Source: an uncultured Clostridia bacterium
GTDB taxonomy: Bacteria; Bacillota; Clostridia; Oscillospirales; JAAYOS01
Assembly: GCA_947593925.1 (NCBI GenBank)
Contig: CANQDU010000006.1
Span: 41,938 to 105,937 of the forward strand
Length of the DNA: 64,000 bases
Direction: 5' to 3'
The notes under the pieces were generated by a model. It was not told the origin of the DNA. It made no database searches and saw only the letters and a list, made by a program, of their open reading frames with translations. The translations under genes were made by a program, and so were the position numbers. Numbering within the stretch: position 1 is the stretch's first letter; the number at the start of each line of letters is the position of its first letter. Below, piece after piece: positions 9,619 to 51,300 of this stretch.

Positions 9619-9647
9619 TTGATTTTTGCACCCGATTATGGTACACT
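9619..9647 (+). promoter_or_regulatory. Sigma-70-type promoter TTGATT-17-TACACT with TG extension, upstream of the methyltransferase/nuclease pair
   Basis: TTGATT (9619-9624), a 17-nt spacer, and TGgTACACT (9639-9647). It lies ~50 nt upstream of ATG 9698. Confidence 0.5.
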
Positions 9648-9697
9648 ATTATAAAAGAACACGACAATACATATCGAGAGCCGAAAGGACAGGAACG

Positions 9698-10822
9698 ATG
9701 GCTAATAAGAACGCAAATCTTAATGCTGCGGCAAAAGCCAAAAAGGATGAGTTTTATACCCAGCTTACGGACATCGAAAAAGAACTGCGGCATTACAGAC
9801 AGCATTTCAAAGGGAAAACGGTGCTTTGCAACTGCGACGACCCATTTGAGAGCAATTTCTTCAAGTATTTTGTCCTGAACTTCAACCGTTTGGGTCTGAA
9901 AAAACTGATCGCCACTTGCTATGCCGGTTCTCCCATAGCGAACAAACAGCTTTCGATTTCTGCCGTTTTGGGTGAAGTAGAAGAAATATCAAACAAGCCA
10001 TATAAAGCGGTAGTTACGACTGTATATGACAAATCGGGTGACGGCGGCGTGGATATGTTCGATGTTGCCGAGCTGTTCAAGTCCGGGGAAAATGAGCTGT
10101 CGGAGTTGGAGGGTGACGGCGATTTTCGCTCGCCCGAATGTCTGGCTTTATTGGATGAAGCGGATATTGTTGTTACAAATCCGCCGTTTTCGCTGTTCAG
10201 AGAATATGTTACAACGTTATTAGAACATGAAAAGTTATTTGTAATCATTGGAAGTTTTAATGCAATTACATATAAGGAAATATTCCCTTTGTTGCGTGAC
10301 AACAAAATATGGCTTGGTATGGGTTTTCAAAACGGTAATGCATATTTCCGAATTCCAGAAGAAAATGCCCGTGAATTTGCTCAAGGCGTTTACGATCCAG
10401 AATCGGGATTTGTTCACTTCAGAAATTGCACTTGGTTTACAAATCTCGACATTAAAAAGCGTCACGAGGAAATGATTTTAGTCAAACGCTATCAGCCTGC
10501 TCTTTACCCCAAATATGATAATTACGATGCGATTGAAGTCAGTAAAACAGCCGATATTCCGTGTGATTATTCCGGTGTTATGGGGGTGCCGATTACTTTT
10601 CTTGATAAATATTGCCCGGATCAGTTCGAGATAGTAGGTATGGCAAAACGTGGTGCCGGAGATCCGGCGCTAAAGTCTCACGTTTACACAAAGGATGAAT
10701 ATCCGAATTATAGTGATTTAAATGCCACTCCTACATTGTGGATTGACGGCAAACTGAAAAATACATATCCGCGTATTTTAATCCGCAACAAGCACCCCGA
10801 AGCGCCGAGGGAGGTAAAATGA
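9698..10822 (+). CDS. N6-adenine DNA methyltransferase (EcoRI-methylase-like family, NPPF catalytic motif)
   Basis: I chose the internal ATG 9698 ([22 protein letters not shown]), preceded by AAAGGACAGGA. Motifs are [13 protein letters not shown] (SAM pocket) and [10 protein letters not shown] (motif IV). The gene is visibly AT-richer than its surroundings. Confidence 0.8.
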
Positions 10823-10823
10823 G

Positions 10824-11930
10824 ATGCAGATAGAAGAACTGAAAGTCACGGTCGGCGAGGTGTACGAGGGCTATTTCAATGACGCGGAGGAGGGTGTTGT
10901 CGGCTATAACGGACTGCTCGACATCCGCCCAAGGTATCAGCGGGAATTTGTATACAGGGACGCACAACGGGACGAAGTCATCCGCACGGTGATGAAGGGT
11001 CTGCCCCTCAATGTAATCTATTGGTGCAAGGTAAAGAAGGAGAACGGTTCCGAAGGGTTTGAGGTGCTGGACGGCCAACAGCGCACGATCTCCCTGTGCG
11101 AATATGTGGACGGGTCCTTCTCTGTAGACGATAAGTATTTCTACAACCTGCCGTCCGACCGGAAAGAGAAGATTTTGAACTACCCCCTGTTTGTATATGT
11201 CTGCGACGGCTCGGACAGCGAAAAGCTTGATTGGTTCCGCATCATCAATATTGCCGGGGAACAGCTCACCGATCAGGAGCTGCGGAACGCCGTCTATGCC
11301 GGCAGCTGGACTTCCGACGCAAAGCGGTATTTCTCCAAAACCGGGTGCGCCGCGGACACGCTGGCGGGCGATTATCTCAAGGGCGTTTCCATCCGGCAGG
11401 AATATCTCGAAACGGCGATATTTTGGGCGGCAAGCGCCGAGGGAAAGAGCATCGAAGGCTATATGGCGGAGCGTCAGGACCTCCCAAGCGCCGTGCAGCT
11501 CTGGAACTATTTCCGCTCGGTCATTGACTGGGTACAGGCCATTTTCCCGAAGAAGCGCAGGGAGATGAAAGGGCTGCCGTGGGGACTGTTCTATAACCGG
11601 CACGGCAAGCGGACAGACCTTGACCCGCGAAAGCTGGAGATTGAAATTCAGCGGCTGATGGGTGATGAGGACGTAACAAGGAAATCCGGCATCTATGAAT
11701 ATCTGCTGACCGGCGACGAAAGGAAACTGTCGATACGCGCTTTTGACCGGCGGGATGCTCTCGCGGCCTACGAAAAGCAAGGTCACAAATGCGCGATTTG
11801 CGGCGAAGCCTTCGAGTTTGAGGAGATGCACGCCGACCATATCACGCCATGGAGCAGGGGAGGCAAAACGACGCCGGATAACTGCCAGATGCTGTGCCGT
11901 GACTGTAATTTAAAGAAAGGCGCGCAGTAA
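10824..11930 (+). CDS. DUF262 (ParB/GmrSD-like N-terminal domain) plus C-terminal HNH nuclease
   Basis: 368 aa. It has the DUF262 hallmarks [10 protein letters not shown] and LDGQQR. The C-terminal HNH is [44 protein letters not shown]. The ATG lies 1 nt after the methyltransferase stop, with GAGGGAGG embedded in the upstream gene. Confidence 0.8.
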
Positions 11931-11950: not shown

Positions 11951-11981
11951 TATAGCATATCGCTCCGCGATATGCTATAAT
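11951..11981 (+). promoter_or_regulatory. Perfect 13-bp-arm palindrome overlapping an extended -10 (TGcTATAAT)
   Basis: The palindrome TATAGCATATCGC-TCC-GCGATATGCTATA spans 11951-11979 and TGCTATAAT spans 11973-11981. It lies 20 nt after the HNH gene stop and 41 nt before ATG 12022. It could be a terminator for the upstream pair, an operator or promoter for the GTPase gene, or both. Confidence 0.5.
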
Positions 11982-12021
11982 ATTTTCAGCATCAATCTTG
12001 TGTGCCGGGAGGTGATACAGC

Positions 12022-14646
12022 ATGGATAATTCAGCGCCGCGCGCCGCGAGGCGCGTCTGCGTCGGACTGCTCGCGCATGTGGACGCGGGCAAGACCACGC
12101 TCAGCGAGGCGCTGCTCTACACGAGCGGCAGCCTGCGGAAGCTGGGGCGCGTCGATCACGGAGATGCGTTCCTCGACAACGACGTGCAGGAGCGCGAGCG
12201 CGGCATCACCATATTCTCAAAGCAGGCCATGCTGTACCTCGAAAACACGGAGATGACGCTTCTCGATACCCCCGGCCACGTCGATTTCTCGGCGGAGATG
12301 GAGCGCACGCTCGGCGTCCTCGACTGCGCGATACTCGTCATCAGCGGCTCGGACGGCGTGCAGGGTCACACGAGGACGCTCTGGCGCCTGCTCGAGCGGT
12401 ACGGCGTGCCGACCTTCATATTCGTAAACAAGATGGACCTCCCCGGCACCGACCGCGGCCGCGTCCTCGAAGGACTGAAGCGCGCGCTCGGCGACGGCTG
12501 TATAGACTTTTCTGCGGACGTCCGCGCGCGGGACGAGGCCGTCGCCATGACGGACGAGGCGGCGCTCGAAGAATTTCTTGCGTCGGGCGTGGTGCCGGAC
12601 GCACGGACGGCGGCGCTCATAGCCGCGCGGAAGGTGTTCCCGTGCTGGTTCGGTTCGGCGCTGAAACTCGAGGGCGTGGAGGAGTTTCTGCGCGGCGTCG
12701 AGACCTACGCGCCCTCGCCGGAGTACCCGGAGGAGTTCGGCGCGAAGGTCTTCAAGGTGTCGCGGGACGCAAAGAACGTCCGCCTCACATGGATGAAGAT
12801 AACCGGCGGAACGCTCCGCGCGAAGGCGCAGCTCTCGCACGGCGAGGGCGAGGACGCATGGGAGGAGAAGGCGGATCAGCTCCGCCTGTACTCCGGTGTG
12901 AAATTTACGACGTTCGAGGAGGCGGAGGCCGGCTCGATAGTCGCCGTGACCGGGCTCACGCGGACGTATCCCGGCGAGGGGCTCGGCGCTGAGCGGGACA
13001 ATCCCGAAGCGGTGCTCGAGCCGGTGCTGAACTACCGGCTGATCCTGCCGGAGGGGACAGACCCGGCGACAGTCCTCCCAAAGCTCAGACAGCTCGAGGA
13101 GGAGGACCCGATGCTCCGGGTGCTCTGGAACGATCAGTGGAAGGAGATAAACGTCCGCCTGATGGGCGAGGTGCAGCTTGAGGTGCTTCAGCGCCTCATC
13201 GCGGACAGGTTCGATATAGAGGCGGACTTCGACACCGGCAGCATCCTCTACAAGGAGACGATAGCGAACCGCGTGGAGGGCGTCGGCCACTTCGAACCGC
13301 TCCGACACTATGCGGAGGTGCATCTTCTGATGGAGCCCGGTCCGCGCGGGAGCGGCGTCCGGGTGGACACCGACTGTCCGCAGAGCCGGCTCGACTTCAG
13401 CTGGCAGAGGCTCATACTCACGCATCTGCTCGAGCGCGAGCACCCCGGCGTGCTCACCGGCTCACCGATAACCGACGTGAAGATAACGCTCGTCGCGGGC
13501 GCGGCGAGCGTCAAGCACACCGAGGGAGGCGACTTCCGTCAGGCGACCTACCGCGCGGTGCGTCAGGGACTCATGCAGGCGGAGAGCGTCCTGCTCGAAC
13601 CGTTCTACGACTTCCGCCTAGAGCTTCCTCCGCAGAATGTCGGCCGCGCCATGACCGACATACAGGGAATGGGCGGCAGTGTGGACGACCCGTCCTCGGA
13701 GGGCGAGATGACCGTCCTCACCGGCTTCGCGCCGGTCGCGGGGCTCCAGGACTACTGGCGCGAGGTGACGGCGTACACGCGCGGCCTCGGGCGGCTCTCC
13801 TGCTCCTTTAGGGGCTACGAGCCGTGCGGGAACGCGGAGGAGGTCGTCGCCGCGATAGGCTACGACCCGGAGCGCGATACCGAAAACCCCGCCGACTCGG
13901 TGTTCTGCGCGCACGGCGCGGGCTTTAACGTCAAGTGGGACAAGGTCCCGGAGTATATGCACATTGAGGGACTGCGCCTTGAGCAGGAGCAGCAGCCCGA
14001 GGAGCAGGCGGCGCCGTCCGCTCCGGCGCACCGGGTGTACGCGACGTCGTTTGAGCAGGACAAGGAGCTGAAGTCCATCTTCGAGAAGACCTACGGCAAG
14101 GTGGAGTACAAGGCGTGGGAACCGGCAAGGAGCCCCGCCCGCACGAGCATCAGCGACTCGTACTCGAAGCGCGGCGTCGGCGCGAGGAAGGCGGAGGGGC
14201 CGGAGTACCTGCTTGTGGACGGCTACAACATCATCTTTGCGTGGGACGAGCTCCGCGAGGTCGCAAAGACGGACATCGCCGCCGCACGGTCGATGCTCGA
14301 GGACATCCTCGCAAACTATCGGGGGTTCCGGAAGTGCGTCGTGATACTCGTCTTTGACGCATACAAGGTGAAGGGCAACCCCGGCTCGGTCGAGAAGCGG
14401 CACGGAATATATATCGTCTACACCAAGGAGGCCGAGACCGCCGACACATATATAGAAAAGACGACCTATCGGATAGCGAAGGACCATCCGGTGCGCGTCG
14501 CCACGTCGGACGGGCTCGAGCAGGTGATAATCCTCGGCCACGGCGCGCTCCGGATAAGCGCGGAGACCTTTCGCGCGGAGGTGGCGGCGACGCAGGTGCG
14601 CATAGACGAGATAATCGCCGAGTACAACCGCAGGGGAAAGAAGTAA
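12022..14646 (+). CDS. TetM/EF-G-family translational GTPase fused to a C-terminal YacP/Rae1-like NYN ribonuclease domain
   Basis: 874 aa. GTPase motifs are G1 AHVDAGKTT, G2 RGITI, G3 DTPGH and G4 NKMD, followed by EF-G-like domains II-V. After a low-complexity linker, the last ~170 aa (EYLLVDGYNIIFAW...VVILVFDAYKVKG...ETADTYIE...VRVATSDGLEQVI..GA.RISA) match the YacP/Rae1 NYN pattern. Confidence 0.8.
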   Translation: MDNSAPRAARRVCVGLLAHVDAGKTTLSEALLYTSGSLRKLGRVDHGDAFLDNDVQERERGITIFSKQAMLYLENTEMTLLDTPGHVDFSAEMERTLGVLDCAILVISGSDGVQGHTRTLWRLLERYGVPTFIFVNKMDLPGTDRGRVLEGLKRALGDGCIDFSADVRARDEAVAMTDEAALEEFLASGVVPDARTAALIAARKVFPCWFGSALKLEGVEEFLRGVETYAPSPEYPEEFGAKVFKVSRDAKNVRLTWMKITGGTLRAKAQLSHGEGEDAWEEKADQLRLYSGVKFTTFEEAEAGSIVAVTGLTRTYPGEGLGAERDNPEAVLEPVLNYRLILPEGTDPATVLPKLRQLEEEDPMLRVLWNDQWKEINVRLMGEVQLEVLQRLIADRFDIEADFDTGSILYKETIANRVEGVGHFEPLRHYAEVHLLMEPGPRGSGVRVDTDCPQSRLDFSWQRLILTHLLEREHPGVLTGSPITDVKITLVAGAASVKHTEGGDFRQATYRAVRQGLMQAESVLLEPFYDFRLELPPQNVGRAMTDIQGMGGSVDDPSSEGEMTVLTGFAPVAGLQDYWREVTAYTRGLGRLSCSFRGYEPCGNAEEVVAAIGYDPERDTENPADSVFCAHGAGFNVKWDKVPEYMHIEGLRLEQEQQPEEQAAPSAPAHRVYATSFEQDKELKSIFEKTYGKVEYKAWEPARSPARTSISDSYSKRGVGARKAEGPEYLLVDGYNIIFAWDELREVAKTDIAAARSMLEDILANYRGFRKCVVILVFDAYKVKGNPGSVEKRHGIYIVYTKEAETADTYIEKTTYRIAKDHPVRVATSDGLEQVIILGHGALRISAETFRAEVAATQVRIDEIIAEYNRRGKK

Positions 14647-16047: not shown

Positions 16048-16896
16048 GCGGGGATTGCATCCCCACCCCTCTAGCGGGGAAGCCCCGCGAGCATTCGCGG
16101 GGTGACCCCCGCGTCCCTAAGTGAGGCAGAGCCTCACCGGTACCATGCGGGGGCTGCGCCCCCGCGCCCCGCGTTACTTTTTGCTTGTGCAAAAAGTAAC
16201 CAAAAAGCACACAAAGGGGAGAAAACCAACGGTTTTCTCCCCTTTGTACCCCTCTTTCCTTAATCGGAAAGGCTCTGCCACGCGGGACACCCGTGCGTAG
16301 CTTAGTACAAGCGTCCACGCTCATACTTTCCACTAGAACCGAAAGTCCCGTTTTCTCGGGATAGCCTCTGCATTACGCTTATAGTGTGAGCGTAGGACCG
16401 GACTTTTGTTTCTACTACGCAGGAACTGTTCGATGTCGTCGAATACAGTGGGAAAGTCGGATATTGTCACCCCGGAAACTCACCCGGTCGGACGATAGAT
16501 TTGTTCGATACGGAGTTATGCCCTGTTATGTGGGTCGTGGTGTTGTGTCTGTATTCAGGAGAGGGATTTTTAAGGGAGAGGGCGGAGCCCTCTCCCTTAA
16601 GCGCGCTTTTTGGATACTTTTTGCGCGAGCAAAAAGTAGCGCAGGGGTGCGGGGCGGCACAGCCCCGCGAAGGTAGTGGTGAGGCTCTGCCTCACTTAGG
16701 GACGCGGGGGTCACCCCCGCGAATGCTCGCGGGGCTTCCCCGCTGGATGGGTGTGGGCTTTGCCCACAGATGGGGTGCGGGGCGGCACAGCCCCGCGAAG
16801 GTAGTGGTGAGGCTCTGCCTCACTTAGGGACGCGGGGGTCACCCCCGCGAATGCTCGCGGGGCTTCCCCGCCGGAGGGGTGGGGCACAAGCCCCAC
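16048..16896 (-). repeat. Composite repeat element, copy A (inverted relative to copies B and C)
   Basis: The left arm (16048-16250) and right arm (16552-16896) are mirror-image arrays of short GC hairpins. The conserved ~300-bp core (16251-16551) aligns by hand with the reverse complement of 23161-23458 and 34400-34697. Confidence 0.85.
16644..16871. repeat. Tandem duplication (two identical 100-bp units, 128-bp period) inside the right arm of copy A
   Basis: The unit GGGGTGCGGGGCGGCACAGCCCCGCGAAGGTAGTGGTGAGGCTCTGCCTCACTTAGGGACGCGGGGGTCACCCCCGCGAATGCTCGCGGGGCTTCCCCGC occurs at 16644-16743 and again at 16772-16871. Confidence 0.9.
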
Positions 16897-23751: not shown

Positions 23752-26700
23752 TTACTGCTCCTTGATGGCGTTTCCTCCCCATATGCCCTCGTTTATGAGC
23801 ACGAAATTGTTGATGCCGCCGGTGAAGATATTTCCGTTGTTGACAACTCTGCCGTAATTTCTCAGCTCGCCGTAAGAGAACTCCGTGCGAGCCTCGTTGG
23901 TAAACGTCGAGCCCGGGTCCAGAACCAGATTTCCGCCCACCCGAAGATGGCTGTGGTTGACAAACGAGCTGCTGATGCTGTAGTCATGACAGATCTCGCC
24001 GTCCAATGCCATATACCCGAAGTTTTCGACCGGAGCCGCCAGATGCGTTTTGGCGTTGAGGCTTACGGAACCGTAGTTTGTAAGCCTGCCCGGCCCCTGC
24101 GTGTCAAGGCCCGCGGCGATCAGCCGTCCCGCTTCCCCGATGACGATGTTGGCATTCGTACTCATGCTCGCGCTCAGGAGTATGCCGCCGCTGTCAACGG
24201 AGATCACGCTTCCGGCCTGCATTTCTACGGGAATAAGGGTATACGCCATAGAATTGTTCGTTACCGTCAACTCGCCGCAAAGGGTGATAAAGTTGCTGTC
24301 GTACAGCCGGGAGTCATCGGTGACGGTTATGGCGCCGCCGTTGAGGCGTATCGGCCCGTTAACTTCGCATGCGGAACCGCCGGAAATGACAAGGTCTCCG
24401 CCGCCCGTCAGATCCAGCCTCGGAACATTCTCATTAGGGTCATCGCCGCAGCCTACGGCCAGGAACGCCCCGTCCGTAATGCGGACTCCGCCGGCTCGGA
24501 CAATTCCTCCGCTGATATCTGCTATGCCTCCCGTGACCGTCAGCGTGCCGGTCACGTTCAGCGTGCCGGCGTAAACAGCGAGATCCGTCTCCACTGTCAG
24601 GTCGCCGTCTATCGTAATATCTCCTGCCACTTGGATGCCGTCGCTGCCGGACGCCATGGCAAGCAGCGTCTCCGCGTCGGTTACGGGAACAACCTCATTC
24701 TCTATCCATCTGCGCACGAACTGCCGGCAGTCCCCGTCCTTGTTGAGCGTGTCCCACGCGGCTGCGGCGTTTCCATCTTCATAGAAGACTATTCCGCCGT
24801 GTATCTGCCCGTCGCCGGAGGTGGCAACGCACCCGGCCGGGTCAGTAATCGTTCCGCTGACGTTTTTGAGATCGCCCGTTACCGTCGTGGGTCCGCAGCT
24901 TTTGATATTTCCGGAGTTCCAGCCGTTGCCAAAGACAGCCGTACCGAAGTTACAAACCGTCGAAGCGCCCTGCAGAGAGAAGCCGCCATTGTCAAAGTCG
25001 CCGCCCAGCTCAAGCTCGCCGATATTAAATACTGTGACGAATGCATCCAGCACGAACGCTAACCCTGCGTCTGCCCGGTGCTCCGGGTTTGCGGACAGCT
25101 TCCCGCAGTTTATCAGAAATCCCGAGTGGATGTTCAGGTTCTGCGGATACATGCCGCCCTGATTGAGTAAAAGGGGCATGTCCCAGAAGTCGATGTTGCC
25201 CATTTCTACTGCGGTTCCGTCGTTGACGGTCCCGCTGTTGACAAACAGGTCGCCTTCAAGCACATGTATTTTTATCGACTCGGATATGACGCCGCGGTTC
25301 ACCAGAGCACGGTTGATGAACAGATTCGCGTCGCCGGTGACGGTCGCGTTCTCGCTGATAAGGAGCGGGCCGCTGAAATAGTAATCACCGCTGAGGCTGA
25401 TGTCGCCGTCGATAGCGACCAGCCTGCCGCTTATCGCGGCGTTCCTGAGCACGCCCTCGTCCGTGACGTAGTCGGCGTTCTCAAAGGCTTTGTCCTCGTC
25501 TAAGACAAAGAAGTTCATATCGTCGGGCATCGGCGAGCCGTCCTCTATGGCAAAGTCGGAGCTGTCCGCGACCCACAGAACGATGCCCTCCGCAATGTAT
25601 CCGTCGCTCGTGCGTGTCAGCTTGCCGCCGTTGCGGGTGCGGATAAACCCACCCTCGCCTTCGACACGGTCGACAAGAAGACCCGACCCCTCGCCGTTCA
25701 CGGTGATAACTCCGCCGTTCAGCCTTAAAACGCCGTAAAATTCCGACTCGGCGGATATCTGCACGTCGCCGGAGGTCACCTCGCATCCGCCGTGTACGAC
25801 GACCGGCTTTGTGATGTTGAGCGACTCGTCCAGACGGAGAGCCTGGTCTCCGCTGTATACCACGGAGGAATACGCATTGTCGTCTGTCAGATACGCGATA
25901 AACTGATCCGCGTCGTAGGCGATAACTTCTCCGCCGTCGTTGCCGTTTGTGCCGCTGTCCGCCTGTTCTTCGCTGACCGGCTTGTGCGTAGGCACCGACG
26001 AATACGTTGACGTGGGCTCGGTAACCGGTGGCGCGCTCGGGCTTGCTTCACCTCTGCTGCCGAGAGTGATGCCGAGCGTCACGCCGAGCACCGCCAGAAC
26101 TGCCGCCGCCGCGGCGCCGATTTTGAAAATGAGATTTTTTCGGGGTTCAGGCGGCGGCACCTGCTTTTGCCATCCGGAGTAAAGCTTGACGTCCGATGTG
26201 ACCGTGAGCTCCTTCAGCGGCTTGGTGCAGGCCGAATCGGTGTACCATCCGAGGAAAGTGTACCCCTTCTTTATCGGAACGGGGAGCTCCGACGCCTTCA
26301 GCACGTCGCCCTTGGCGACAGAAAGCTCCGTATTCTCGTCCCCGCCGGTGAGGTAGACGGACACCACGCCCTCATAGAGCGCCGTGTGGAATTCCTTTGC
26401 GGACTGGAACCGTTCCCTCGGCTGTACCCTCAGAGCGCGCAGTATAGCCTGCTCCTGCCCCTGGGACAGCTCCGCGCCGAGCTTTCTCGGAGGGATAAGC
26501 TCGTCCTGGAAGAGGCGGTCCATGGCCTGAGGAGGCTTCTTGCCGGTGATACAGTAGTAAATGGTCGCCGCGAGCGCGTAGACGTCCGTCCACGCGCCCT
26601 GCGCGCCGCTCGAGGACTGGTACTGCTCCAGCGGCGCATATCCGTGCCGGAGCATGATGGTCATGGTGGCGTCGCCGTCTACCGCCTCGCGGGCGCACCC

Positions 26701-27360
26701 GAAGTCGAGCAGCTTGATTATGCCGTGCTCGAGCATGAGGTTATCCGGGCTGATGTCCCGATGGATAAGCCCCAGATCGTGCATGGCGGAAAGAGAATCA
26801 AAGAGCGGCTCGATTATGTGCAGCAGTTCCCACGCCGGCAATACGCCGCCCCGCTGCTTTGTCAGCTCGCTCAACGTCGTTCCGTCGATGAACTCCATGA
26901 CTATGTAGGCGGTGGAGTTCTCTTCAAAGAAGTCCCTGACGCCGACTATGTTCGGCAGCCGGTCCAGCCTCGCCATGGTTCGGGCCTCCTGCAGGAAGCG
27001 CTGTTTTCCGCGCTCGAAGAAGCTGTTATTCGAGCCCAGAAAGTTATCCACGTTGGTAGATACCGCGCTGTTTCTGGTGGCCTTGTCGGTGGGGAAGTAT
27101 TCCTTTACGGCCACCTTCAGGCCGAGGACCATGTCCCGGCCTATGTAGGTGATGCCGAAGCCGCCCTCTCCGAGGACCCTGCCAAGCATATATCGGTCCC
27201 GGAGCACCGTGCCGGCCGGCAGATGCTTCGGCTGCGCTACGTAGCTTCCCGCCGTGAGCCCGCAGCAGGGACACGGCTTATCGCCCTCCACCTGCGACAT
27301 GCAGTACGGGCAGTATTCCGCCTGCGCAGTGTTTCCGTGCTCTTCTATATCCGGAGTCAT
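23752..27360 (-). CDS. Membrane Ser/Thr protein kinase: N-terminal zinc ribbon, Hanks kinase, Listeria-Bacteroides-repeat-like module, TM, ~770-aa repeat-rich ectodomain
   Basis: 1202 aa. Motifs are CPYC..CPCC, the Gly loop GEGGFGITY, VAVKEY, HRDISPDN, DFG and GYAPLEQY. GYTFLGWYTDS occurs before the TM (IFKIGAAAAAVLAVLGVTLGITLG). The C-terminal part is rich in short G/N/V/T repeats suggesting a beta-helix. Confidence 0.85.
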   Translation of the reverse strand: MTPDIEEHGNTAQAEYCPYCMSQVEGDKPCPCCGLTAGSYVAQPKHLPAGTVLRDRYMLGRVLGEGGFGITYIGRDMVLGLKVAVKEYFPTDKATRNSAVSTNVDNFLGSNNSFFERGKQRFLQEARTMARLDRLPNIVGVRDFFEENSTAYIVMEFIDGTTLSELTKQRGGVLPAWELLHIIEPLFDSLSAMHDLGLIHRDISPDNLMLEHGIIKLLDFGCAREAVDGDATMTIMLRHGYAPLEQYQSSSGAQGAWTDVYALAATIYYCITGKKPPQAMDRLFQDELIPPRKLGAELSQGQEQAILRALRVQPRERFQSAKEFHTALYEGVVSVYLTGGDENTELSVAKGDVLKASELPVPIKKGYTFLGWYTDSACTKPLKELTVTSDVKLYSGWQKQVPPPEPRKNLIFKIGAAAAAVLAVLGVTLGITLGSRGEASPSAPPVTEPTSTYSSVPTHKPVSEEQADSGTNGNDGGEVIAYDADQFIAYLTDDNAYSSVVYSGDQALRLDESLNITKPVVVHGGCEVTSGDVQISAESEFYGVLRLNGGVITVNGEGSGLLVDRVEGEGGFIRTRNGGKLTRTSDGYIAEGIVLWVADSSDFAIEDGSPMPDDMNFFVLDEDKAFENADYVTDEGVLRNAAISGRLVAIDGDISLSGDYYFSGPLLISENATVTGDANLFINRALVNRGVISESIKIHVLEGDLFVNSGTVNDGTAVEMGNIDFWDMPLLLNQGGMYPQNLNIHSGFLINCGKLSANPEHRADAGLAFVLDAFVTVFNIGELELGGDFDNGGFSLQGASTVCNFGTAVFGNGWNSGNIKSCGPTTVTGDLKNVSGTITDPAGCVATSGDGQIHGGIVFYEDGNAAAAWDTLNKDGDCRQFVRRWIENEVVPVTDAETLLAMASGSDGIQVAGDITIDGDLTVETDLAVYAGTLNVTGTLTVTGGIADISGGIVRAGGVRITDGAFLAVGCGDDPNENVPRLDLTGGGDLVISGGSACEVNGPIRLNGGAITVTDDSRLYDSNFITLCGELTVTNNSMAYTLIPVEMQAGSVISVDSGGILLSASMSTNANIVIGEAGRLIAAGLDTQGPGRLTNYGSVSLNAKTHLAAPVENFGYMALDGEICHDYSISSSFVNHSHLRVGGNLVLDPGSTFTNEARTEFSYGELRNYGRVVNNGNIFTGGINNFVLINEGIWGGNAIKEQ

Positions 27361-39337: not shown

Positions 39338-39559
39338 CGGACGGCGTTTGCTCCCGTCCCTTCAGAGAGCCGGAGGGACGGGAGGAGGCGCTTTCCTCAT
39401 TAGCGGCTCCGTCTCCTTTCAGAGTCTGCCCGGACAGCGCGTGGCTGCGGCTTGCCGTTGCCGCCGCCCCCACTGTTCGGGCGGAAAGAAAAAAGGAACG
39501 AATGCCGCAGGAAAGTCCCCACAATACTTCAAACAGAATGTGAAAGGAGTACAATTACT

Positions 39560-41659
39560 ATGCGTAAGAAAGTACTGGCATTAGTGTTGGCGTTGGTCAT
39601 GGTTATCGCCATGCTTCCGACGGTGGCGTTCGCCGCGGACTTCGCCGACACGAAGGGCCACTGGGCTGAGACCCAGATCGACCGTTGGAGCGACTTCGGC
39701 GTCGTCGGAGGCGACGGCACCGGCTTCAACCCGAACGGCAGCATGACCCGCGCACAGGCGGCCCAGGTTTTCGTCAATCTTCTGAAGCTGACGAAGGCCG
39801 GCGACATCACCGCCTATACCGACGTTCCCGCCACCGCGTGGTATGCCGACGCGATAAGCAAGGTCGTCGAGAAGGGCATCATGAACGGCGTGAGCGCCAC
39901 GACGATGAACCCGGAAGGCACTCTCACCCGCGAGCAGATGTTCGTCATGATCGGCCGCGCGCTCGGCGTCAAGCCGGTCGAGACCGCCACGAAGACCTTC
40001 GTTGACGGCAAGGAGACCTCCGATTGGGCCACCGGCTACATAAACGCGCTTGCCGACATGGGCGTCATCCACGGCACCGGCAACAACGAGCTCAATCCGA
40101 CCGACGTCATCAACCGCGCGAGCGTTATGACCGCGCTCGACAACCTCATCGGCGGCTACGCGAACGAGGACGGCCAGACCGTCGAGATTCAGGAGGGCAA
40201 GATAACCCTTATCGTCGCTGACGACGTCAAGGTCACAGGCGAGGCTGACCCGGATATGCCGATAGTCGTCGCGGGCGCGGCGAAGACCGTCGACCTCGAG
40301 GGCGTCACCGTCACCGGCGAAGAGGCTCCCGTGGTTCAGGTTCAGGTCGAGGAAGTTGCCATAGAGAACGCGCCGGAGGGCACGAACGTTGCCGCTCCTG
40401 CCGAGGCTACCGACGTCACCGTCAACGGTGAGACCGTCGAGGCCGGCAGCACCGCCGAGGCTCCCGCTCCCGAGGCCGAGCAGACCGCTCCGTCCCAGCA
40501 GGGTACGACTCCGGTTCCGCAGCCGGCTCCGGCTGAACCGACGCCGTCTGAGCACAAAAATGAGGCCGAGGCAGCTATGAACGCTGCGTGGGAAGCTCTT
40601 GATACTGCTCTTGACGACATGGGTGAACTCGTTGTGGCTTCTCAGAGCAATGGCACTTATACTCTCACCATCAATTTTGATAAGCTTACGTCCACCGATA
40701 AGGTTCTTGACGGTGACGGTCACGGACTTGCCACCGCAATCGGCGAGGCGCTGAAAACGCACCTCAATGGTATCTCCCTGACTGTCGGCGGTGAGGATGT
40801 CTACACTGCCGAGGGCAAGTTCAATAACACCGCGCTTAAGCATGCTCTGTTCACCGTTGCCGGTGGCTTCTTCTATGATCTCGGTAATCTCCCCGAGAGC
40901 GGAGAGTTCAGATCCGTTGAGGGTACTGCCACTGCCAACAATTGCACACAGAGTGACAAGTGCACGTATGATGTTACCCTTAAGGTCGTGCTCACAGGCG
41001 AAAAACTCACTCGCGTCAAGGATTTTGCGAAGAAACTTTCCGATTATGTGTCCATGACTAAGATCAACGCGAGCGATGTTGCTAGTAAGTATGGCACGAT
41101 TCAAGGTCTCACCGGCGAATCCGAGTACATTGTCGTTTGCCTTGATAAGCTTCCCCAGACCCTTCTCACTAAGGTAGGTCAGGCTTATCGTGGTGACAGT
41201 GCGCAGACAGCTTTTGAGGGTGCTTCTGTTGAAGCGCTTTTGACCCTCCTGGCACAGCAGACAATGGACGGCAGCCTCGCCGAGATTGAGACGCTTGCTA
41301 GGATGATCAACACCAATGAAGGCCTTATCGATACCGTACTTGGCCACGTTTCCGCGAAGGTGCTTGTTGGCGGCGAGACTAAGGATCTTATTACCATGGG
41401 CTCCAATTATACTCCTTACGCCGGTTCAGTTACTGATTTTGCTAAGTTGGTCAAGGGCGTTAATGCGCTCCTCACCAGCGATGCCAAGTCCCTGAAGCCC
41501 AGCCAGTTCAAGGTCACACAGGGATCGACGACAGGCAAGTATATTGTTCCTGTTACCGTCCACATTGACCTCGAGTCTTCTCTCGGTTTCACGGCTGATG
41601 AGACGATACTGGTAGAGCTCAATATTGACCTCTCCTCCGTGAATACTTCCGGAAAATAA
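39560..41659 (+). CDS. Surface protein with N-terminal SLH (S-layer homology) domains
   Basis: I chose the start at ATG 39560 (MRKKVLALVLALVMVIAMLPTVAFA signal peptide) after AAAGGAG. There are three SLH-like repeats (FADTKGHWAETQIDRW..., YTDVPATAWYADAISKVVEKGIMNG..., FVDGKETSDWATGYINALADMGVIHG...). A Pro/Ala/Glu linker and an unassigned C-terminal half follow. Confidence 0.85.
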   Translation: MRKKVLALVLALVMVIAMLPTVAFAADFADTKGHWAETQIDRWSDFGVVGGDGTGFNPNGSMTRAQAAQVFVNLLKLTKAGDITAYTDVPATAWYADAISKVVEKGIMNGVSATTMNPEGTLTREQMFVMIGRALGVKPVETATKTFVDGKETSDWATGYINALADMGVIHGTGNNELNPTDVINRASVMTALDNLIGGYANEDGQTVEIQEGKITLIVADDVKVTGEADPDMPIVVAGAAKTVDLEGVTVTGEEAPVVQVQVEEVAIENAPEGTNVAAPAEATDVTVNGETVEAGSTAEAPAPEAEQTAPSQQGTTPVPQPAPAEPTPSEHKNEAEAAMNAAWEALDTALDDMGELVVASQSNGTYTLTINFDKLTSTDKVLDGDGHGLATAIGEALKTHLNGISLTVGGEDVYTAEGKFNNTALKHALFTVAGGFFYDLGNLPESGEFRSVEGTATANNCTQSDKCTYDVTLKVVLTGEKLTRVKDFAKKLSDYVSMTKINASDVASKYGTIQGLTGESEYIVVCLDKLPQTLLTKVGQAYRGDSAQTAFEGASVEALLTLLAQQTMDGSLAEIETLARMINTNEGLIDTVLGHVSAKVLVGGETKDLITMGSNYTPYAGSVTDFAKLVKGVNALLTSDAKSLKPSQFKVTQGSTTGKYIVPVTVHIDLESSLGFTADETILVELNIDLSSVNTSGK

Positions 41660-41758: not shown

Positions 41759-41836
41759 ATGGACAAAAAAGTTAAATTGTCGGAACACCTGACGACGATT
41801 TGCTTGTATGTATACGAAATGAGGTGTTATCTATGA
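41759..41836 (+). CDS. Candidate 25-codon upstream ORF translationally coupled to the 1762-aa SLH protein gene
   Basis: AAAGGAG lies 7 nt upstream of ATG 41759. The product is MDKKVKLSEHLTTICLYVYEMRCYL. Its TGA (41834-41836) overlaps the ATG (41833-41835) of the large gene as ATGA. There is no homology evidence. Confidence 0.3.
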   Translation: MDKKVKLSEHLTTICLYVYEMRCYL

Positions 41837-44800
41837 AAATCGGAAGACGCGCCCTTAGCTTTTCCCTCGCGCTGCTGCTTGTAGTGACGATGCTGCCCCT
41901 TAGCGCGCTGGCGGCGCCGGGTATGAGTCAGAATGAGGCCGTCAATACGGTTTATGACGCGATGAAAGAAGCAATCGCCGCGCCGGATGACGGAGTCAAC
42001 GCAGCGCTTACAGGGATTGCCAAGCTGAATTTTATTGAAGGTTCAAGCGGCGGTGTCGCTTGTAATTTTATTAATAAAAATTACCAAGCTATGGACCTAA
42101 TAAGCATTCCGTTTCTTAGCAAATTATTCGCTTATGAAAAAATAACCTCGATGACTCTGAGCGACATCGAGTGGGGCGAAGATTATTTGACAAAATACCT
42201 CGATCAGAACGCGGGGCAAACCAGCACCATGCTAACCATATTATCCTTACTTCCAGATATGCTTAAGCAGAACGACAACACCCTGCCGATAGCTCACGGA
42301 GAAGAGGATCAGCAAGATCTACAAATGCTACTGATGCTTGGAGTCCTTGCTTCGGTACTGGCTCGATACGATGGCAAGGCCGCCGAACTTTCAGGGGCAG
42401 ATGTTACAATAAGCTTTCTGGCGGGCACCCAAGTTCCCGTCACGCTCAACGGGGAGATTGACGGTATAACATTCAGCGCCCCTGTTACGATTTATTTCTG
42501 CAACAGTGATGACAATCATAAAGTGACCTTTACAGGCGTGGGCGTTACAGATAACAGCCCCACCGAATATCAATATGATGCTACGATTACATTCCCGGAG
42601 CCGAAAAATAGCGGTCAATTCCTCTACGGTTGGAAAAAGACCTGTACCGACTATGGAGATAGTAAAAATGAGAAAAAGAATGTAGAGTGCGGCGTGATTT
42701 CTGCCGCTGACGCCTCGTCTGAGAAGATGGGGGCGCTTGACGTTACATACGAAGCCCAGTGGACGTCCGAAACCAAGAACGTGATATTCCACTATGAGGA
42801 CGATACATCTACTACAACAACGATTGCTCAGGGTGTCGGCGAGGGTTGGCTGCTCCCGGAAACCCCGAAGCGGGAGGGCTACACCTTCCTCGGTTGGTTT
42901 ACCGATTCGGAAGACAGCGACAGCAAGATCGGAGAGAACTATGCCACTGAAAACGGCACAGATATCTACGTCCATTGGTGGAAGCACCCGGTCGTCACCT
43001 TCCATAACGAATATGCACGCAATACAGATACAAAAGTAACCACAGATTCCAGGGGCATGGTACCTACGACTCAAGCCGAGAATCTAGGAAATGCCAAACG
43101 AGGATATACTTTCCACGAATGGCTGGACTCTGAGGAAAATGGCAAAAAGATAGATTTTGACACCAAAGTGTTTACGGGAGACACCACCGTCTACGCAAAG
43201 GTTACTGCCAACACCTACACCGTGGAATTCAAGCCCGGAGATAGTGACGTTACAGGTTCGATGGAAAGCCAGCAGTTCACTTACGACGTGCCCCAAGAGC
43301 TCAAGGCGAACGAGTTCACCCGCAAGGGCTACGACTTCGATGTCTGGTCTCAAAGTCGTAATAAGACATATACAGATTGCCAGGAGGTGTCGAATCTCAC
43401 CTACGCTCAGGGCGGGAAAGTCACCCTGACCGCCAAGTGGAAGGCAAAAACGTATGATGTGACCCTTGACGCCGACGGCGGCGAAGTTAACGGCAAGGAC
43501 ACAGATACCATCACCGTCACCTACGACCAGACCTACGGCGATCAACTGACCGACCCCACAAGGGAGGGTTACGAGTTTGCCGGCTGGCAGACCGCCGGCG
43601 GTGAAACGGTAAGCCAGCAGACCAAAGTTGGCGAGGGGCTCGATGTCACTGCGGAGGGCGAGCTTAAACTTATCGCTCAGTGGAACCCCAAGGGCGATAC
43701 CAAGTATACAGTGAAGCATTGGCTGCAAAAGGTCGATGGCAATGAGTATGAGCTTGCCGATAACGGCGAGGAAAGCAAGAATGGTCAGACTGCCGCCGAA
43801 GTTACCCTGACGCCCAGAGAGATTACGGGCTTCCATGTCAATAGGGCAAGCAGTAATGACCTTAAGGGCACGATCGGCGCGGACGGCCAGACCGTCATGA
43901 ACATCTACTACGACCGCAACACCTATCAGATCACATGGAAGTACCGGGATGCGGCGGGCAGCGAGACGTCGGCGCAGGAGACCTATCGCTACGGCGCCAA
44001 GCCCTCGCGCGAGGAAGCGGAAGTGAATGTGGATACAAACAGCACCCACTACGAATTTACCGGTTGGGATACCACTCCCGCCGAGGTCACCGGCGTGGCG
44101 ACCTACACCGCCCTGTACACCGAAAGCCACGAGGCGAGGATAGGGGAGACCAACTGGCGCACGCTGGAGCTCGCCCTTGAGCACGCCGAGGCGAACGATA
44201 CCGTTGTCCTTGAAAGCGACGTCACCCTTACCGGCGATGTGGAGGTTCCCAAGGACGTCATGCTCCTCCTGCCCGTCTCCGCGGATGACACCGGCTACAC
44301 CGAGACAGGCTACAACCCCGACGGGACGAGCACTGCCGGCAGCACCGGCAAGGCCGCAAACGCGCAGGTGTTCCACACGCTGACGATCCCCGCCGAGAGT
44401 ACCCTGACGGTCAACGGCACGGTGCTTGTCAACGCGGTCACCGGGCGCCCCGGCGCGGGACACTACGACATGGACGTGACCGGCGGCTACGGAGAGATCG
44501 CGCTTGAGGGCGAAATCATTGTCAAAGATGGCGGCATACTTGACGTGTGCGGATACGTCACCGGCAGCGGAACCGTCACTGCCGAGCCCGGCGGCGAGGT
44601 GCGCGACCTGTACATCGTCCGCAACTGGCGCGGCGGCTCGCGGGCGCTTAGCGTCTATCCGTCCGTCTACCCCATGAACCAGGCGGACATGCACAACATC
44701 GAGGTCAAGACTGTCATCAACGCGGGCGCCAGCCTTGTCGGCACCGTCAAGATGTACGCAAACGAGCAATACTACTACACCCGCTTCCCGCAGATAGATC

Positions 44801-48390: not shown

Positions 48391-51300
48391 ATGAAAAAAC
48401 GGGTCATAAGCTTGTTGCTTGTAATATGTCTGTTGGCGGGTCTGCTGCCGACGGCGGCTTTGGCGGCCGACTCCGGCGAGAAGATCACGGTCGTCGGCTT
48501 CGAGGAGCCGGACGGCTCCGTGGCGGAGCAGACCGTCCCGGCGGGCCGCAATCAGGACGCGCTTATCCGCGACGGACTGCTGTATCTGCCCGCCTCGCTG
48601 ACGGCGCAGATACTCGTCCCCGAGGAACCGCAGGTGGAGCCCGGCTTCGGCTTCGACGGTCCGGAGATCTTTGACGAGAGCGCCGGGAGCGGCGACGGCG
48701 GAAGCACGTCCGCCACGCCCGATGCCGCCCCCGAGATGGTGATAAAGACCGTGGAGATACCCGTCGCATGGCCGAAGGTCATCGACGGCGTGACTGCGGG
48801 CGTGTTTATTCTGGAGCCCATCCTCCCCGAGGAATATGTTCCGGGGGAGGGCGTGGACGTGCCCGCCGTCACCGTTACCGTGGAGGACATGGAGCTCGAT
48901 ACGGACACGGAGACCGGTAAGCTCCTCCGGGAATTCCTTGACACATGGTTTTCCGGCGTCACGCTCGACGGCATCCCCGCCGCCGTCCTCGCCATGGATG
49001 AGGACGCCCTTCTCGGCATGATCGCGGACTACGAGCAGATCCTTGCCGCCGCGGAGGAGGCCGGGGCCGGCGCCGCCGTCATGGACGCCCTTCGGGCGGG
49101 TATCGACGGCGCACTGGCGGCACTTCCCATCGAAGGGCCGGTGTGGCTGCATGAGCTGCCCATGATGGACACGATCATGGCGGGAGCGGTGGATCTGAAG
49201 TATCTTGACGGCGACGGCACAGCCTTCATTTATCACAGCTTTGAGGAGACAAAGAGCTTTTCGCCCGGTCAGGCCTACGCCTTCCTGAACAACCAATTCG
49301 ACGGAGACGACGCCGTCAGCGCCCTGGGCTCCGGCGCTATACTCAAGGCGACAGACGAAATAAACAACTCCGTACTTTTTATGCACTCGAAATACCCCAA
49401 CGCCAAGGTAGAGGTCTATGTGGACGTGATTCAGAAGGGCCGGGATTTTGACAACTGCCAGCACGGCGGCCTTTACAAGGTGCCGGGCACCTCCCCGGCC
49501 GAGTACCGCTATTTCTGCTGGGCGGGCGGCGCGCAGGACTGCGGAGCCTACTACGCCTATACCTACCAGACCTCGGAAATCGAAGCGAGGGACGTGCGCG
49601 CACAGTTGAAGGACGTGACAAAGCAGGGCTCCAACAGCTCCGCCGACTACACCGTTATCCTGACCTATGACACCGGCAAGACCGTCACTCTGGACCCCGG
49701 CGGCTACACGGTCTCCGCCGACGCATCCACGGGCGTAGTCACGTTCAAGATAACAGACAACGACGGAAAGACCATCAACGCCCGCTTCCAGGGACCCGCG
49801 GCTATCCGCTATTCGGACGGCGGTAAGTCCGGCGTGACGGGTCTGCCCGGGACGCAGTATGCATTGCCGGGCAGCGTCACCCTCGCCGCCGCGCCCACGT
49901 GCGCCGGGTATGCGTTTACGGAGTGGCGGGATCAGAACGGCAAAGCATACGCGAACGGGGCAACGATAAGTGATTTCAAAACGTCCATGACCCTGACCGC
50001 TCAGTGGAGAGACACTAAGGCCCCGGATTTCACCTATGAACAGGTGGAGGTGAAGCTGGGCGCGACGAAGGAGGAAGTGGCCGACAAGGTGAGGTCGGCG
50101 CTGACCGTCACCGACAACGAGCCGGCGGAGGAATGCACCGTCGTCGTGACGGTAGCTGACGGCGCTACCAACATCGCCGGAGAGCGTCAGGTCACCGTCA
50201 CGGTGAAGGACAAGGCGGGGAACAAGACGGAGCGGCAGGTCAACGTGACCGTCACCGCCTCGGCGCTGGCGCTGACGACGCCCGTGTTCGATAAGGCGGC
50301 AAAGACCCTGACCGCGCAGCTCGCCTCCCCCGGTGAGGACAAAATCACCGAGACGGGTCTTGTCTGGGGCATCATGACCGCCCCAACCACCGCCCTCAAC
50401 AACGGCAAATATAATACCACCCCGGCTGTGACGACGGCGGGCGGCGAGATAAAGACGCCCCCGGACATCACCGAGGGCGTGACTTACTATGCCCGCGCTT
50501 ACGCGATCGCCGGGGGCGTGACCTATTACAGCGAGCAGGTGTCTTTCGGCATCGGCGCGGCCAATTACGGGACGTTTAACATCTCCTCCAGCGGCAATAC
50601 CTTCACCGTCACAAGGACGGACGGCTCCGACGGCACACAGACCGTCTATTTCCGCACGGTAAACGGCTCCGCCGTGGGCGGCACTCACTTCACCCACCAG
50701 GCCGGGACGCTGACGTTCGGGCAGGGAGAGACAAAGCAGACCATCACCGTCAATGAGAACGGCGTGGCCGCGCAGTATGGCGATAAGCCCGCCACGGCCT
50801 ACTCCAACACCGACCGCACCTACTCGGTGGAGATCTACCGGGTCACCGGCGGCGGCACGCTGGGGAATACCACCCGCGCGTCGCGAATCATGAGCAAGGA
50901 CAGTAATCATACCGTCAGCCGTACGGTCTACACGACAGAGCAGTCAAAGGTAGACGTCGTGCAAACAAGCGGAACGAACGGAAAATATATTGGAGATAGT
51001 ACGAGAAGCCAAGGTGCAACTGATAAAAACGTCAGGTTCCTGACCAACCGAAATAATACGCAAAACTACCACACAAACAGTTCACTTTCGACCTATTACA
51101 GCGGAAACACTGGGACCTATTTGCAGGCAACCGGCAGCGGCTGGTATTACCGCTATGATTTGTATGCCTACGAGATTGAAGACGGCTATGAGCACGCATA
51201 TATTGGAAACCAGCCTTTGGATGATTCTTTCCATGATACCCCCTCAAAGGGTGATGCGGTCAGCGGTCTCGCCGGACAGCTTTGGGCATGTACATTTGAG

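Follow-up and report, generated by a model that had tools for sequence, protein, structure and literature searches.

A translational GTPase fused to a Rae1/YacP-type nuclease in Clostridia, a putative ribosome-docking mRNA endonuclease

What is the role of a protein in which a translational GTPase resembling EF-G and TetM is joined to a ribonuclease domain of the Rae1/YacP type? Such a protein of 874 amino acids (aa) is encoded by an open reading frame (ORF) with an ATG start at 12022..14646 on the forward strand of the window, a stretch of 64,000 nucleotides (nt) from an uncultured Clostridia bacterium of the Oscillospirales (assembly GCA_947593925.1, contig CANQDU010000006.1, positions 41,938 to 105,937). 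The answer favored here, with a probability of roughly 55%, is that the gene encodes a ribosome-docking, GTP-dependent version of the mRNA endonuclease Rae1. Atkinson (2015) reported that the Tet proteins of ten Clostridiales species have gained a YacP-like NYN domain and proposed tests for a role as ribosomal RNA (rRNA) RNase or in resistance (PMC4342817), and Matelska et al. (2017) described TetM-like/NYN_YacP fusions in some Clostridia and left their role open (PMC5499597). The window gene, which has the same architecture and comes from the same taxon, is a member of this published family. A preceding reading of the locus from the sequence alone had supposed such fusions to be uncharacterized; this holds for experimental characterization, which was not found in the literature, but not for the fusion itself, which was reported in 2015 and again in 2017.

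Architecture and integrity of the fusion

The gene and its parts (in window coordinates, all on the + strand) are the following.

12007..12014, +: strong Shine-Dalgarno-like GGGAGGTG, at a distance of 7 nt from the ATG (seen in the sequence itself)
12022..14646, +: whole fusion ORF, 874 aa, stop codon within the coordinates (ORF and Pfam)
12055..12717, +: G domain, residues 12-232 (Pfam GTP_EFTU, E 3.5e-49)
12736..13230, +: EF-G domains II (residues 239-314) and III (residues 334-403) (Pfam EF-G_D2, EFG_III)
13240..13581, +: domain IV, residues 407-520 (Pfam EFG_IV, E 3e-14)
13588..13833, +: domain V, residues 523-604 (Pfam EFG_C, E 6.5e-17)
13834..13971, +: family-specific C-terminal module, residues 605-650 (model confidence of about 80-90 and family conservation)
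13972..14205, +: flexible tether, residues 651-728, rich in E/K/R/A/S (model confidence and composition)
14047..14106, +: conserved motif in the tether, residues 676-695 (alignment; low-confidence helix)
14206..14631, +: NYN_YacP/Rae1-type nuclease domain, residues 729-870 (Pfam, E 1.2e-45)

The GTPase motifs G1 (AHVDAGKTT), G3 (DTPGH, with His86), G4 (NKMD) and G5 (SAL) are all present. EF-G_D2 scores 26.8 bits against a Pfam gathering score of 27 and EFG_III 28.7 against 27, and the NYN_YacP match at residues 730-870 reaches 155.9 bits against a gathering score of 24.6 (E 1.2e-45). The five-domain layout and the GTPase motifs recognized in the sequence-only reading are borne out by this domain set, and so is the NYN pattern, with LLVDGYN at 730-736, FDAY at 778-781, ETAD at 805-808, YIE, ATSD at 827-830 and EQ at 833-834. 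A Foldseek search of the AlphaFold2 model against the PDB returned chains of the EF-G/EF-2 family almost exclusively among the top 50 (best E between 1e-52 and 9e-52). The combination of an EF-G/TetM-like GTPase with an NYN_YacP domain is real and lies far beyond chance. The G+C content of the gene (0.66) is near the range of the window (0.57-0.64).

Relatives were collected in two ways. A HMMER scan of 1.84 billion representatives gave 29,026 matches, the best 150 of which were inspected, one for each cluster at 50% identity. A scan of one genome per GTDB species gave at least 549 confirmed relatives, and the best 80 loci were analyzed. These data bear on the explanation, also raised in the sequence-only reading, that two neighboring genes were merged by an error of sequencing or assembly. 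Five independent contigs of separate assemblies, among them one ENA metagenome assembly and, from another run, Logan assemblies, encode exactly the same 874-aa protein. A 95-97% identical relative occurs in another metagenome-assembled genome (MAG), and the copy in a rabbit-gut MAG is 95% identical. An uninterrupted ORF of at least 800 aa is found in 76 of the 80 related loci from species-representative genomes; among the five shorter ORFs that cluster with them, four begin within a few hundred bases of a locus end and the fifth lies on the opposite strand. The same Pfam architecture occurs in more than 120 clusters at 66-97% identity, and in the family alignment conserved sequence continues across the GTPase-nuclease junction. 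An artefact is ruled out by the five contigs and the 76 intact loci, and its probability is practically nil.

The catalytic parts and the region between them

The nuclease part aligns with the B. subtilis YacP/Rae1 structures 5MQ8 and 5MQ9 (E 3e-22), without gaps in the core. Asp733, Asp779, Asp808 and Asp830 align to D7, D53, D81 and D104 of Rae1. D733, D779 and D830 are each retained in 145 of 151 aligned sequences and D808 in 143, with mostly gaps in the remainder. Two features define the NYN_YacP group, a GYN motif that directly follows the first catalytic Asp and an active site with no fewer than four Asp residues (PMC5499597). Both features are found in the window protein, in which the motif reads LLVD733-G-Y-N736 and is conserved across the family (D in 145, G in 142, Y in 144 and N in 146 of 151 sequences). 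A PF05991-type NYN domain with catalytic acidic residues, as proposed in the sequence-only reading, is confirmed by the Pfam match and by all four Asp residues, which are conserved. NYN_YacP proteins are further marked by two C-terminal helices that bear conserved basic residues; in the AlphaFold2 model of the window protein, one long C-terminal helix (847-870) is predicted. On the GTPase side, G1, G3 and G4 are kept in about 100% of the 150 diverse representatives and the catalytic His86 of DTPGH in 147 of the 148 sequences with a residue at this position, and A213 and L214 of G5 are invariant in an alignment of 84 sequences. At the level of sequence, this shows that both catalytic centers are conserved. 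The fused domain probably shares the chemistry and the substrate class of Rae1.

Experiments in B. subtilis support Rae1 as an mRNA nuclease that acts at stalled or collided ribosomes and feeds the transfer-messenger RNA (tmRNA) pathway (PMC12407103, PMC13622287), and a 2026 preprint describes Rae1-dependent tmRNA tagging after induced collisions (PMC13622287). The model in which Rae1 cuts within the ribosomal A site was a docking-based hypothesis and was withdrawn by its authors in 2025; the cut lies 12 nt upstream of the stalled A-site codon, where the tail of a stalled or collided ribosome is. There is no structure of ribosome-bound Rae1, because the binding is transient (PMC13622287). The sequence-only reading had adopted cleavage in the A site as its premise and had suggested that the GTPase would deliver the nuclease to exactly that site. 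With the premise withdrawn this no longer follows, and a tether of at least 58 aa speaks for a reach beyond the docking site and not for a position within the A site.

Domain IV is conserved more strongly than any other domain, with a mean majority fraction of 0.68 compared to 0.58 for both the G domain and the NYN domain. Its signature loops are GHFEPLRHYAEV (422-433) and, as a family consensus, G(R/K)AHxKHTEGGDFR (493-506), the window form of which is AGAASVKHTEGGDFR at 492-506. The three most conserved runs outside the GTPase motifs are EPLRHYAEV (425-433) and KHTEGGDFR (498-506), which belong to these loops, and VFDAY in the NYN domain. Domain IV of EF-G and of TetM enters the decoding center. 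The high conservation of the domain and its family-specific tip loops suggest that it makes a specific, conserved contact there.

Some database annotations name members of the family as tetracycline protection proteins. According to this explanation the protein is a ribosomal protection protein of the Tet family with an added accessory RNase domain. The best NCBIfam profile is indeed tet_protect, the TetM alignment is contiguous over residues 12-600, Atkinson (2015) placed the fusions in the Tet subfamily (PMC4342817), and the Prokaryotic Genome Annotation Pipeline (PGAP) labels some members TetM/TetW/TetO/TetS family protein. However, the tet_protect score of 402.7 bits is far from the curated cut-off of 775, and the other Tet models are further below their thresholds (M/W 253 versus 1100, Tet(M) 226 versus 1420, and likewise Q and Otr(A)). 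Compared to solved structures, EF-G (240 bits) is as distant as TetM (241.9 bits). The TetM loop gLYYSPVSTPADFR aligns to gAASVKHTEGGDFR, that is, YYSPVS is replaced. Residues Y506, Y507, S508 and P509 of this loop, which are reported to displace tetracycline, correspond to A, S, V and K in the window protein and to a conserved A-H-x-K in the family. Genes for ribosomal protection proteins travel on conjugative transposons or plasmids and have a patchy distribution due to horizontal transfer; for the fusion a mobile-element context is absent, and the family is widely spread across Clostridia. The signature of Tet proteins is missing, and it is very unlikely that the window protein is a tetracycline-resistance determinant; only a slim chance is left to a Tet protein with an accessory nuclease. 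By their sequences the fused GTPases are a separate paralogue family, which is alike Tet in its indel pattern only, since the alignment with TetM is contiguous whereas that with EF-G splits at G'. Database names within the family vary ("translation factor GTPase family protein", "GTP-binding protein", "NYN domain-containing protein"), and a Tet-type name is probably wrong. Ribosome-targeted RNA cleavage instead of drug resistance, as proposed in the sequence-only reading, is the best reading, but the A-site logic attached to it has been superseded.

The region between GTPase and nuclease comprises about 125 aa (605-729). It had been described as a low-complexity linker of about 70 aa, but it consists of a folded, conserved module followed by about 78 disordered residues with a conserved motif in them. 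The module (605-650) is modeled as helix, beta-hairpin and helix with a predicted local distance difference test score (pLDDT) of about 80-90, and its consensus GYxxC..GYDPExDxxNPxDSVFCxHGAGxxVxWxxVxxxMH is conserved across the family. In a comparison of the family profile with the PDB, the alignment with TetM and TetO stops at the end of domain V, and that with some EF-G chains continues for about a dozen profile positions, into the first module helix. Because the alignments end there, the hairpin and the last helix have no detectable relative in the PDB. Unfused relatives of about 650 aa end right after the module, which therefore belongs to the GTPase part. Four such short representatives (P0248, P0257, P0259 and P0264; 634-706 aa) stop just after the module without an NYN domain; they may be truly unfused, split genes, or products cut by contig ends. 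Two further assignments for the module were considered and dropped. A zinc site formed by C602, C629, H631 and H647 has the CCHH pattern in only 86 of 151 sequences, and the four residues are lost singly and not together, which makes an obligate site unlikely. Homology to the C-terminal helix of TetM, suggested by a DKVxxYM-like string, was not confirmed, as the profile stops at the end of domain V.

The tether is disordered (pLDDT below 50 for residues 654-723), charged and variable in sequence, and its length in fused members ranges from 58 to 141 aa with a median of 83. Its motif at 676-695, with the consensus (D/E)xELxxIFExTYG, is moderately conserved and is predicted to form a weak amphipathic helix, modeled at low confidence for 677-691. 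A long, disordered and poorly conserved tether imposes no fixed geometry. This would suit an EF-G-like rescue, recycling or splitting GTPase that acts alone, with the fusion serving only to co-regulate a nuclease that degrades released mRNA and is not delivered to any particular position. The few relatives of about 650 aa that lack the NYN domain point in the same direction. On the other hand, the tether contains a conserved motif, and the fusion has stayed intact in 76 of the 80 genome loci and throughout at least 150 clusters at 50% identity, from which it is argued that the physical linkage itself is selected. Independent action of the two parts is rather unlikely on this evidence.

Distribution, relation to stand-alone yacP and proposed function

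The best 150 of the 29,026 matches lie at 42-64% identity, are nearly all 830-1000 aa long and in most cases align from end to end. As nearly all of them are full-length fusions, this list does not exhaust the fused family. The fusion is found in all of the best 80 of the at least 549 loci, across many families of Clostridia: Oscillospiraceae (Flavonifractor, Intestinimonas, Lawsonibacter, Oscillibacter, Dysosmobacter), Ruminococcaceae (Faecalibacterium, Gemmiger, Ruminococcus, Anaerotruncus, Ruthenibacterium), Lachnospiraceae (Blautia, Dorea, Anaerobutyricum, Mediterraneibacter, Herbinix), as well as Acutalibacteraceae, Monoglobus and Eubacterium. In these loci identity decreases roughly with taxonomic distance, which fits vertical inheritance. 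The window itself comes from an Oscillospiraceae-like, uncultured bacterium of the gut. Among 72,556 plasmid records of PLSDB only two contain the fusion. Each of these is large and non-mobilizable, and the one from Monoglobus, at least, is a mislabeled piece of chromosome; two "phage" matches are unannotated fecal contigs. The family looks broad and chromosomal. An association with mobile elements was rejected, as there is neither a true plasmid or phage link nor a conserved mobile neighbor in the 80 loci.

When all ORFs of the 80 loci were clustered, no shared neighbor gene was found; only the gene itself and its shadow ORFs recur, and the next clusters, which occur in no more than 10 loci, hold unrelated genes (ABC transporters, MatE, kinases, PPDK, LspA). 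This bears on the alternative that the GTPase delivers the nuclease to rRNA or transfer RNA (tRNA), for rRNA maturation, quality control or ribosome decommissioning, for example by a cut in 16S rRNA near the decoding center. An rRNA-related function was the original reading of YacP, based on the neighborhood of rlmB and mrnC (PMC5499597), and by analogy with EF-G and TetM complexes domain IV and the C-terminal module would sit near 16S rRNA. However, the fused gene is unlinked to rRNA-processing genes in all 80 loci, the sole characterized NYN_YacP enzyme, Rae1, cleaves mRNA in a way that depends on translation, and a tether of at least 58 aa would be needless for a target beside the docking site. 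An rRNA or tRNA target is considered unlikely.

In C. difficile a 175-aa stand-alone NYN protein is encoded in the cluster gltX-cysS-mrnC-thyX-rlmB-yacP-sigH-tuf. Chromosome pieces of fusion-bearing lineages were taken from mislabeled PLSDB records and represent three partial genomes. In Monoglobus pectinilyticus (at least 11 records), tblastn with residues 596-874 matched the fused gene only; rlmB is followed by a TIGR00282 phosphoesterase gene and pgeF with no yacP there, and sigH lies between pta-ackA and hisD with no yacP beside it. In Vescimonas fastidiosa and Subdoligranulum variabile no yacP match was found after rlmB at E <=1, compared to 6e-36 for the C. difficile control. A protein search with C. 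difficile YacP as the query returned only relatives from Peptostreptococcaceae and gave no information on co-occurrence. In Oscillospirales, Lachnospirales and Monoglobales the fused gene is probably the orthologue of Rae1 and not an additional paralogue. It would stand in for the yacP gene that normally lies between rlmB and sigH, and this replacement is partly demonstrated by the genome comparison.

Two observations were made alongside this comparison. Immediately downstream of rlmB, in the place that yacP occupies in C. difficile, Vescimonas fastidiosa (L089, 5731-7887) has a 718-aa ORF and Subdoligranulum variabile (L090, 1214-4078) a 955-aa ORF, both without a Pfam match and weakly alike (25% over 330 aa, E 2e-17). 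Furthermore, core chromosomal genes (rlmB, sigH, tuf, rplK, cysS, secA) are present on the PLSDB "plasmids" NZ_OY725736.1, NZ_OY725739.1 and at least nine others of Monoglobus pectinilyticus, and likewise on records of C. difficile with 96-150 kb (e.g. NZ_CP149721.1). All of these are evidently chromosome fragments, a caveat for plasmid-based statistics.

The function proposed for the fusion, as a ribosome-docking and GTP-dependent Rae1, would proceed in the following steps. By homology to EF-G and TetM, the GTPase module would dock at the factor-binding site of the ribosome with domain IV toward the decoding center, and binding and hydrolysis of GTP would set its residence time. The NYN domain, held by a tether of 58-141 aa that starts from the C-terminal module, would then cut the mRNA of a stalled or collided ribosome. 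As with the stand-alone Rae1 of B. subtilis, such a cut would destroy the problem message and yield a truncated end for rescue by tmRNA. We infer mRNA as the substrate and a role in rescue from this likeness.

Several points weigh against this proposal. The binding to ribosomes, the dependence on GTP and the nature of the RNA substrate were each deduced from homology, and full-text literature searches found no experimental work on any fused member. The window protein deviates from the family in domain IV at A494 and S496, where the consensus is R/K and H, and it ends at RRGKK without the basic tail of about 15 aa that most close homologues (66-72% identical) possess. The evidence for orthologue replacement comes from three partial genomes, with the fused gene confirmed in Monoglobus only. 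In addition, one MAG labeled Peptostreptococcaceae (L028) carries the fusion although this family usually has a stand-alone yacP, so that coexistence is possible.

A more specific version of the proposal is speculative and doubtful. In it the protein would be the only orthologue of Rae1 that Oscillospirales, Lachnospirales and Monoglobales possess, and would work as a GTPase-gated collision nuclease on the trailing ribosome of a disome. In native disomes of B. subtilis the lead ribosome is non-rotated and the collided one rotated, and a nuclease-type SMR domain is flanked in them by uS7/uS11 of the lead ribosome on one side and by uS3 of the collided ribosome on the other. EF-G-type factors bind rotated, hybrid-state ribosomes, and the mRNA entry channel (uS3) is on the factor side of the 30S subunit. 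A factor on the collided ribosome could therefore place its tethered nuclease where Rae1 cuts, and a precedent is given by the C-terminal domains of SelB, which reach the entry channel from the factor site. The EF-G-like body would recognize the trailing ribosome, trapped in the rotated state with hybrid tRNAs, and the tether would let the NYN domain reach the mRNA entry channel of this ribosome. This spot would coincide with the tail of the lead ribosome and with the cutting position of the stand-alone enzyme, -12 relative to the A site of the lead ribosome.

If this specific version holds, a stable complex of ribosome and Rae1, which the field could not trap, already exists in nature. A natural and widespread fusion of Rae1 to a translational GTPase could be locked on ribosomes with non-hydrolysable GTP and would show where and how the nuclease engages. 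Work from 2025-2026 has recast Rae1 as the Gram-positive nuclease at stalled or collided ribosomes, which makes the fusion timely. It would imply a GTP-controlled response to stalling in dominant gut Clostridia such as Faecalibacterium, Blautia, Dorea, Gemmiger and Agathobacter. The probably wrong TetM/W/O/S annotation of some members could also inflate resistome counts in gut metagenomes.

Surroundings of the gene and comparison with known systems

The neighbors of the fusion gene in the window are a type II restriction-modification (R-M) pair and a glycoside hydrolase of family 4 (GH4). The R-M pair forms a two-gene islet of low G+C content (0.49 versus about 0.61) at 9626-11930, directly upstream of the fusion gene. 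One of its genes encodes an adenine methylase of the EcoRI type (PF13651, E 9e-143; PADLOC MTase_II), the other a nuclease with GmrSD_N/DUF262 and HNH endonuclease domains (PADLOC REase_II, E 7e-151). The islet is missing from the orthologous locus of P. phocaeensis and is therefore likely a recent insertion. A role of the fusion in a defense system was rejected; PADLOC has neither a hit nor a model for it, and the upstream R-M pair is absent from the P. phocaeensis locus. The interval that separates the restriction gene from the fusion gene contains a perfect 13-bp inverted repeat, TATAGCATATCGC-TCC-GCGATATGCTATA, at 11951-11979. A T-rich run comes after this repeat and a TATAAT hexamer (11976-11981) overlaps it; it was not called by the automatic scan. 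The repeat could be the terminator of the R-M islet or an operator or promoter element of the fusion gene; a promoter scan upstream of the fusion gene found nothing.

Further features were noted elsewhere in the window. A G+C-rich repeat block at 16060-16890, between the GH4 glycosidase gene and a gene for a glycosyltransferase resembling monogalactosyldiacylglycerol synthase, contains two direct copies of 113 nt (16644-16756 and 16772-16884, 97% identical), inverted partial copies at 16061-16170 and AT-rich palindromes (TACTTTTTGC..GCAAAAAGTA), and yields spurious repeated ORFs. Three surface proteins with S-layer homology domains are encoded at 41800-47121 (1773 aa), 48391-58359 (+, 3322 aa) and 39452-41659 (735 aa). 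The two giant ones (1773 and 3322 aa) also have Listeria-Bacteroides repeats, and Calx-beta, CarboxypepD_reg and YDG domains are found in addition in that of 3322 aa. In a Ser/Thr protein kinase of 1202 aa, encoded at 23752-27360 (-), the kinase domain is followed by a Listeria-Bacteroides repeat domain.

Compared to the reports of 2015 and 2017, which covered about ten species, the family is now seen to be very large, with at least 549 genome loci and no fewer than 150 clusters at 50% identity, and its description is extended by the domain IV signature, the C-terminal module, the tether motif and the absence of the Tet residues. With TetM and TetO (PDB 3J9Y, 4V6V) the window protein shares the five-domain layout and the contiguous alignment over residues 12-600 (241.9 bits), but it scores below the Tet cut-offs, its YYSP loop is replaced, its C-terminal region is different, and the fusion is chromosomal and without mobile context. 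With EF-G (fusA) it shares the fold, the GTPase motifs and the domain order. It differs in its scores (TIGR00484, 248.8 against a cut-off of 659.4; NF009381, 299.3 against 583), in the split of the alignment at G', in the domain IV loops and in the position of the gene outside the str operon.

The nuclease domain is about 40% identical to Rae1, with the D-GYN signature and the four catalytic Asp residues, and 46.7% identical to the stand-alone YacP of C. difficile. Rae1 is a stand-alone protein of about 170 aa encoded after rlmB (yacO) in the gltX...yacO-yacP operon, whereas the fused domain is covalently tethered to a translational GTPase of 650 aa and encoded elsewhere. Rae1 binds ribosomes only transiently. 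Functional analogues are SmrB of E. coli and Cue2/NONU-1 of eukaryotes, which cut mRNA at stalled or collided ribosomes and feed rescue pathways. These enzymes differ from the fusion in having unrelated SMR folds and in being recruited via the disome interface or ubiquitin and not by a GTPase module.

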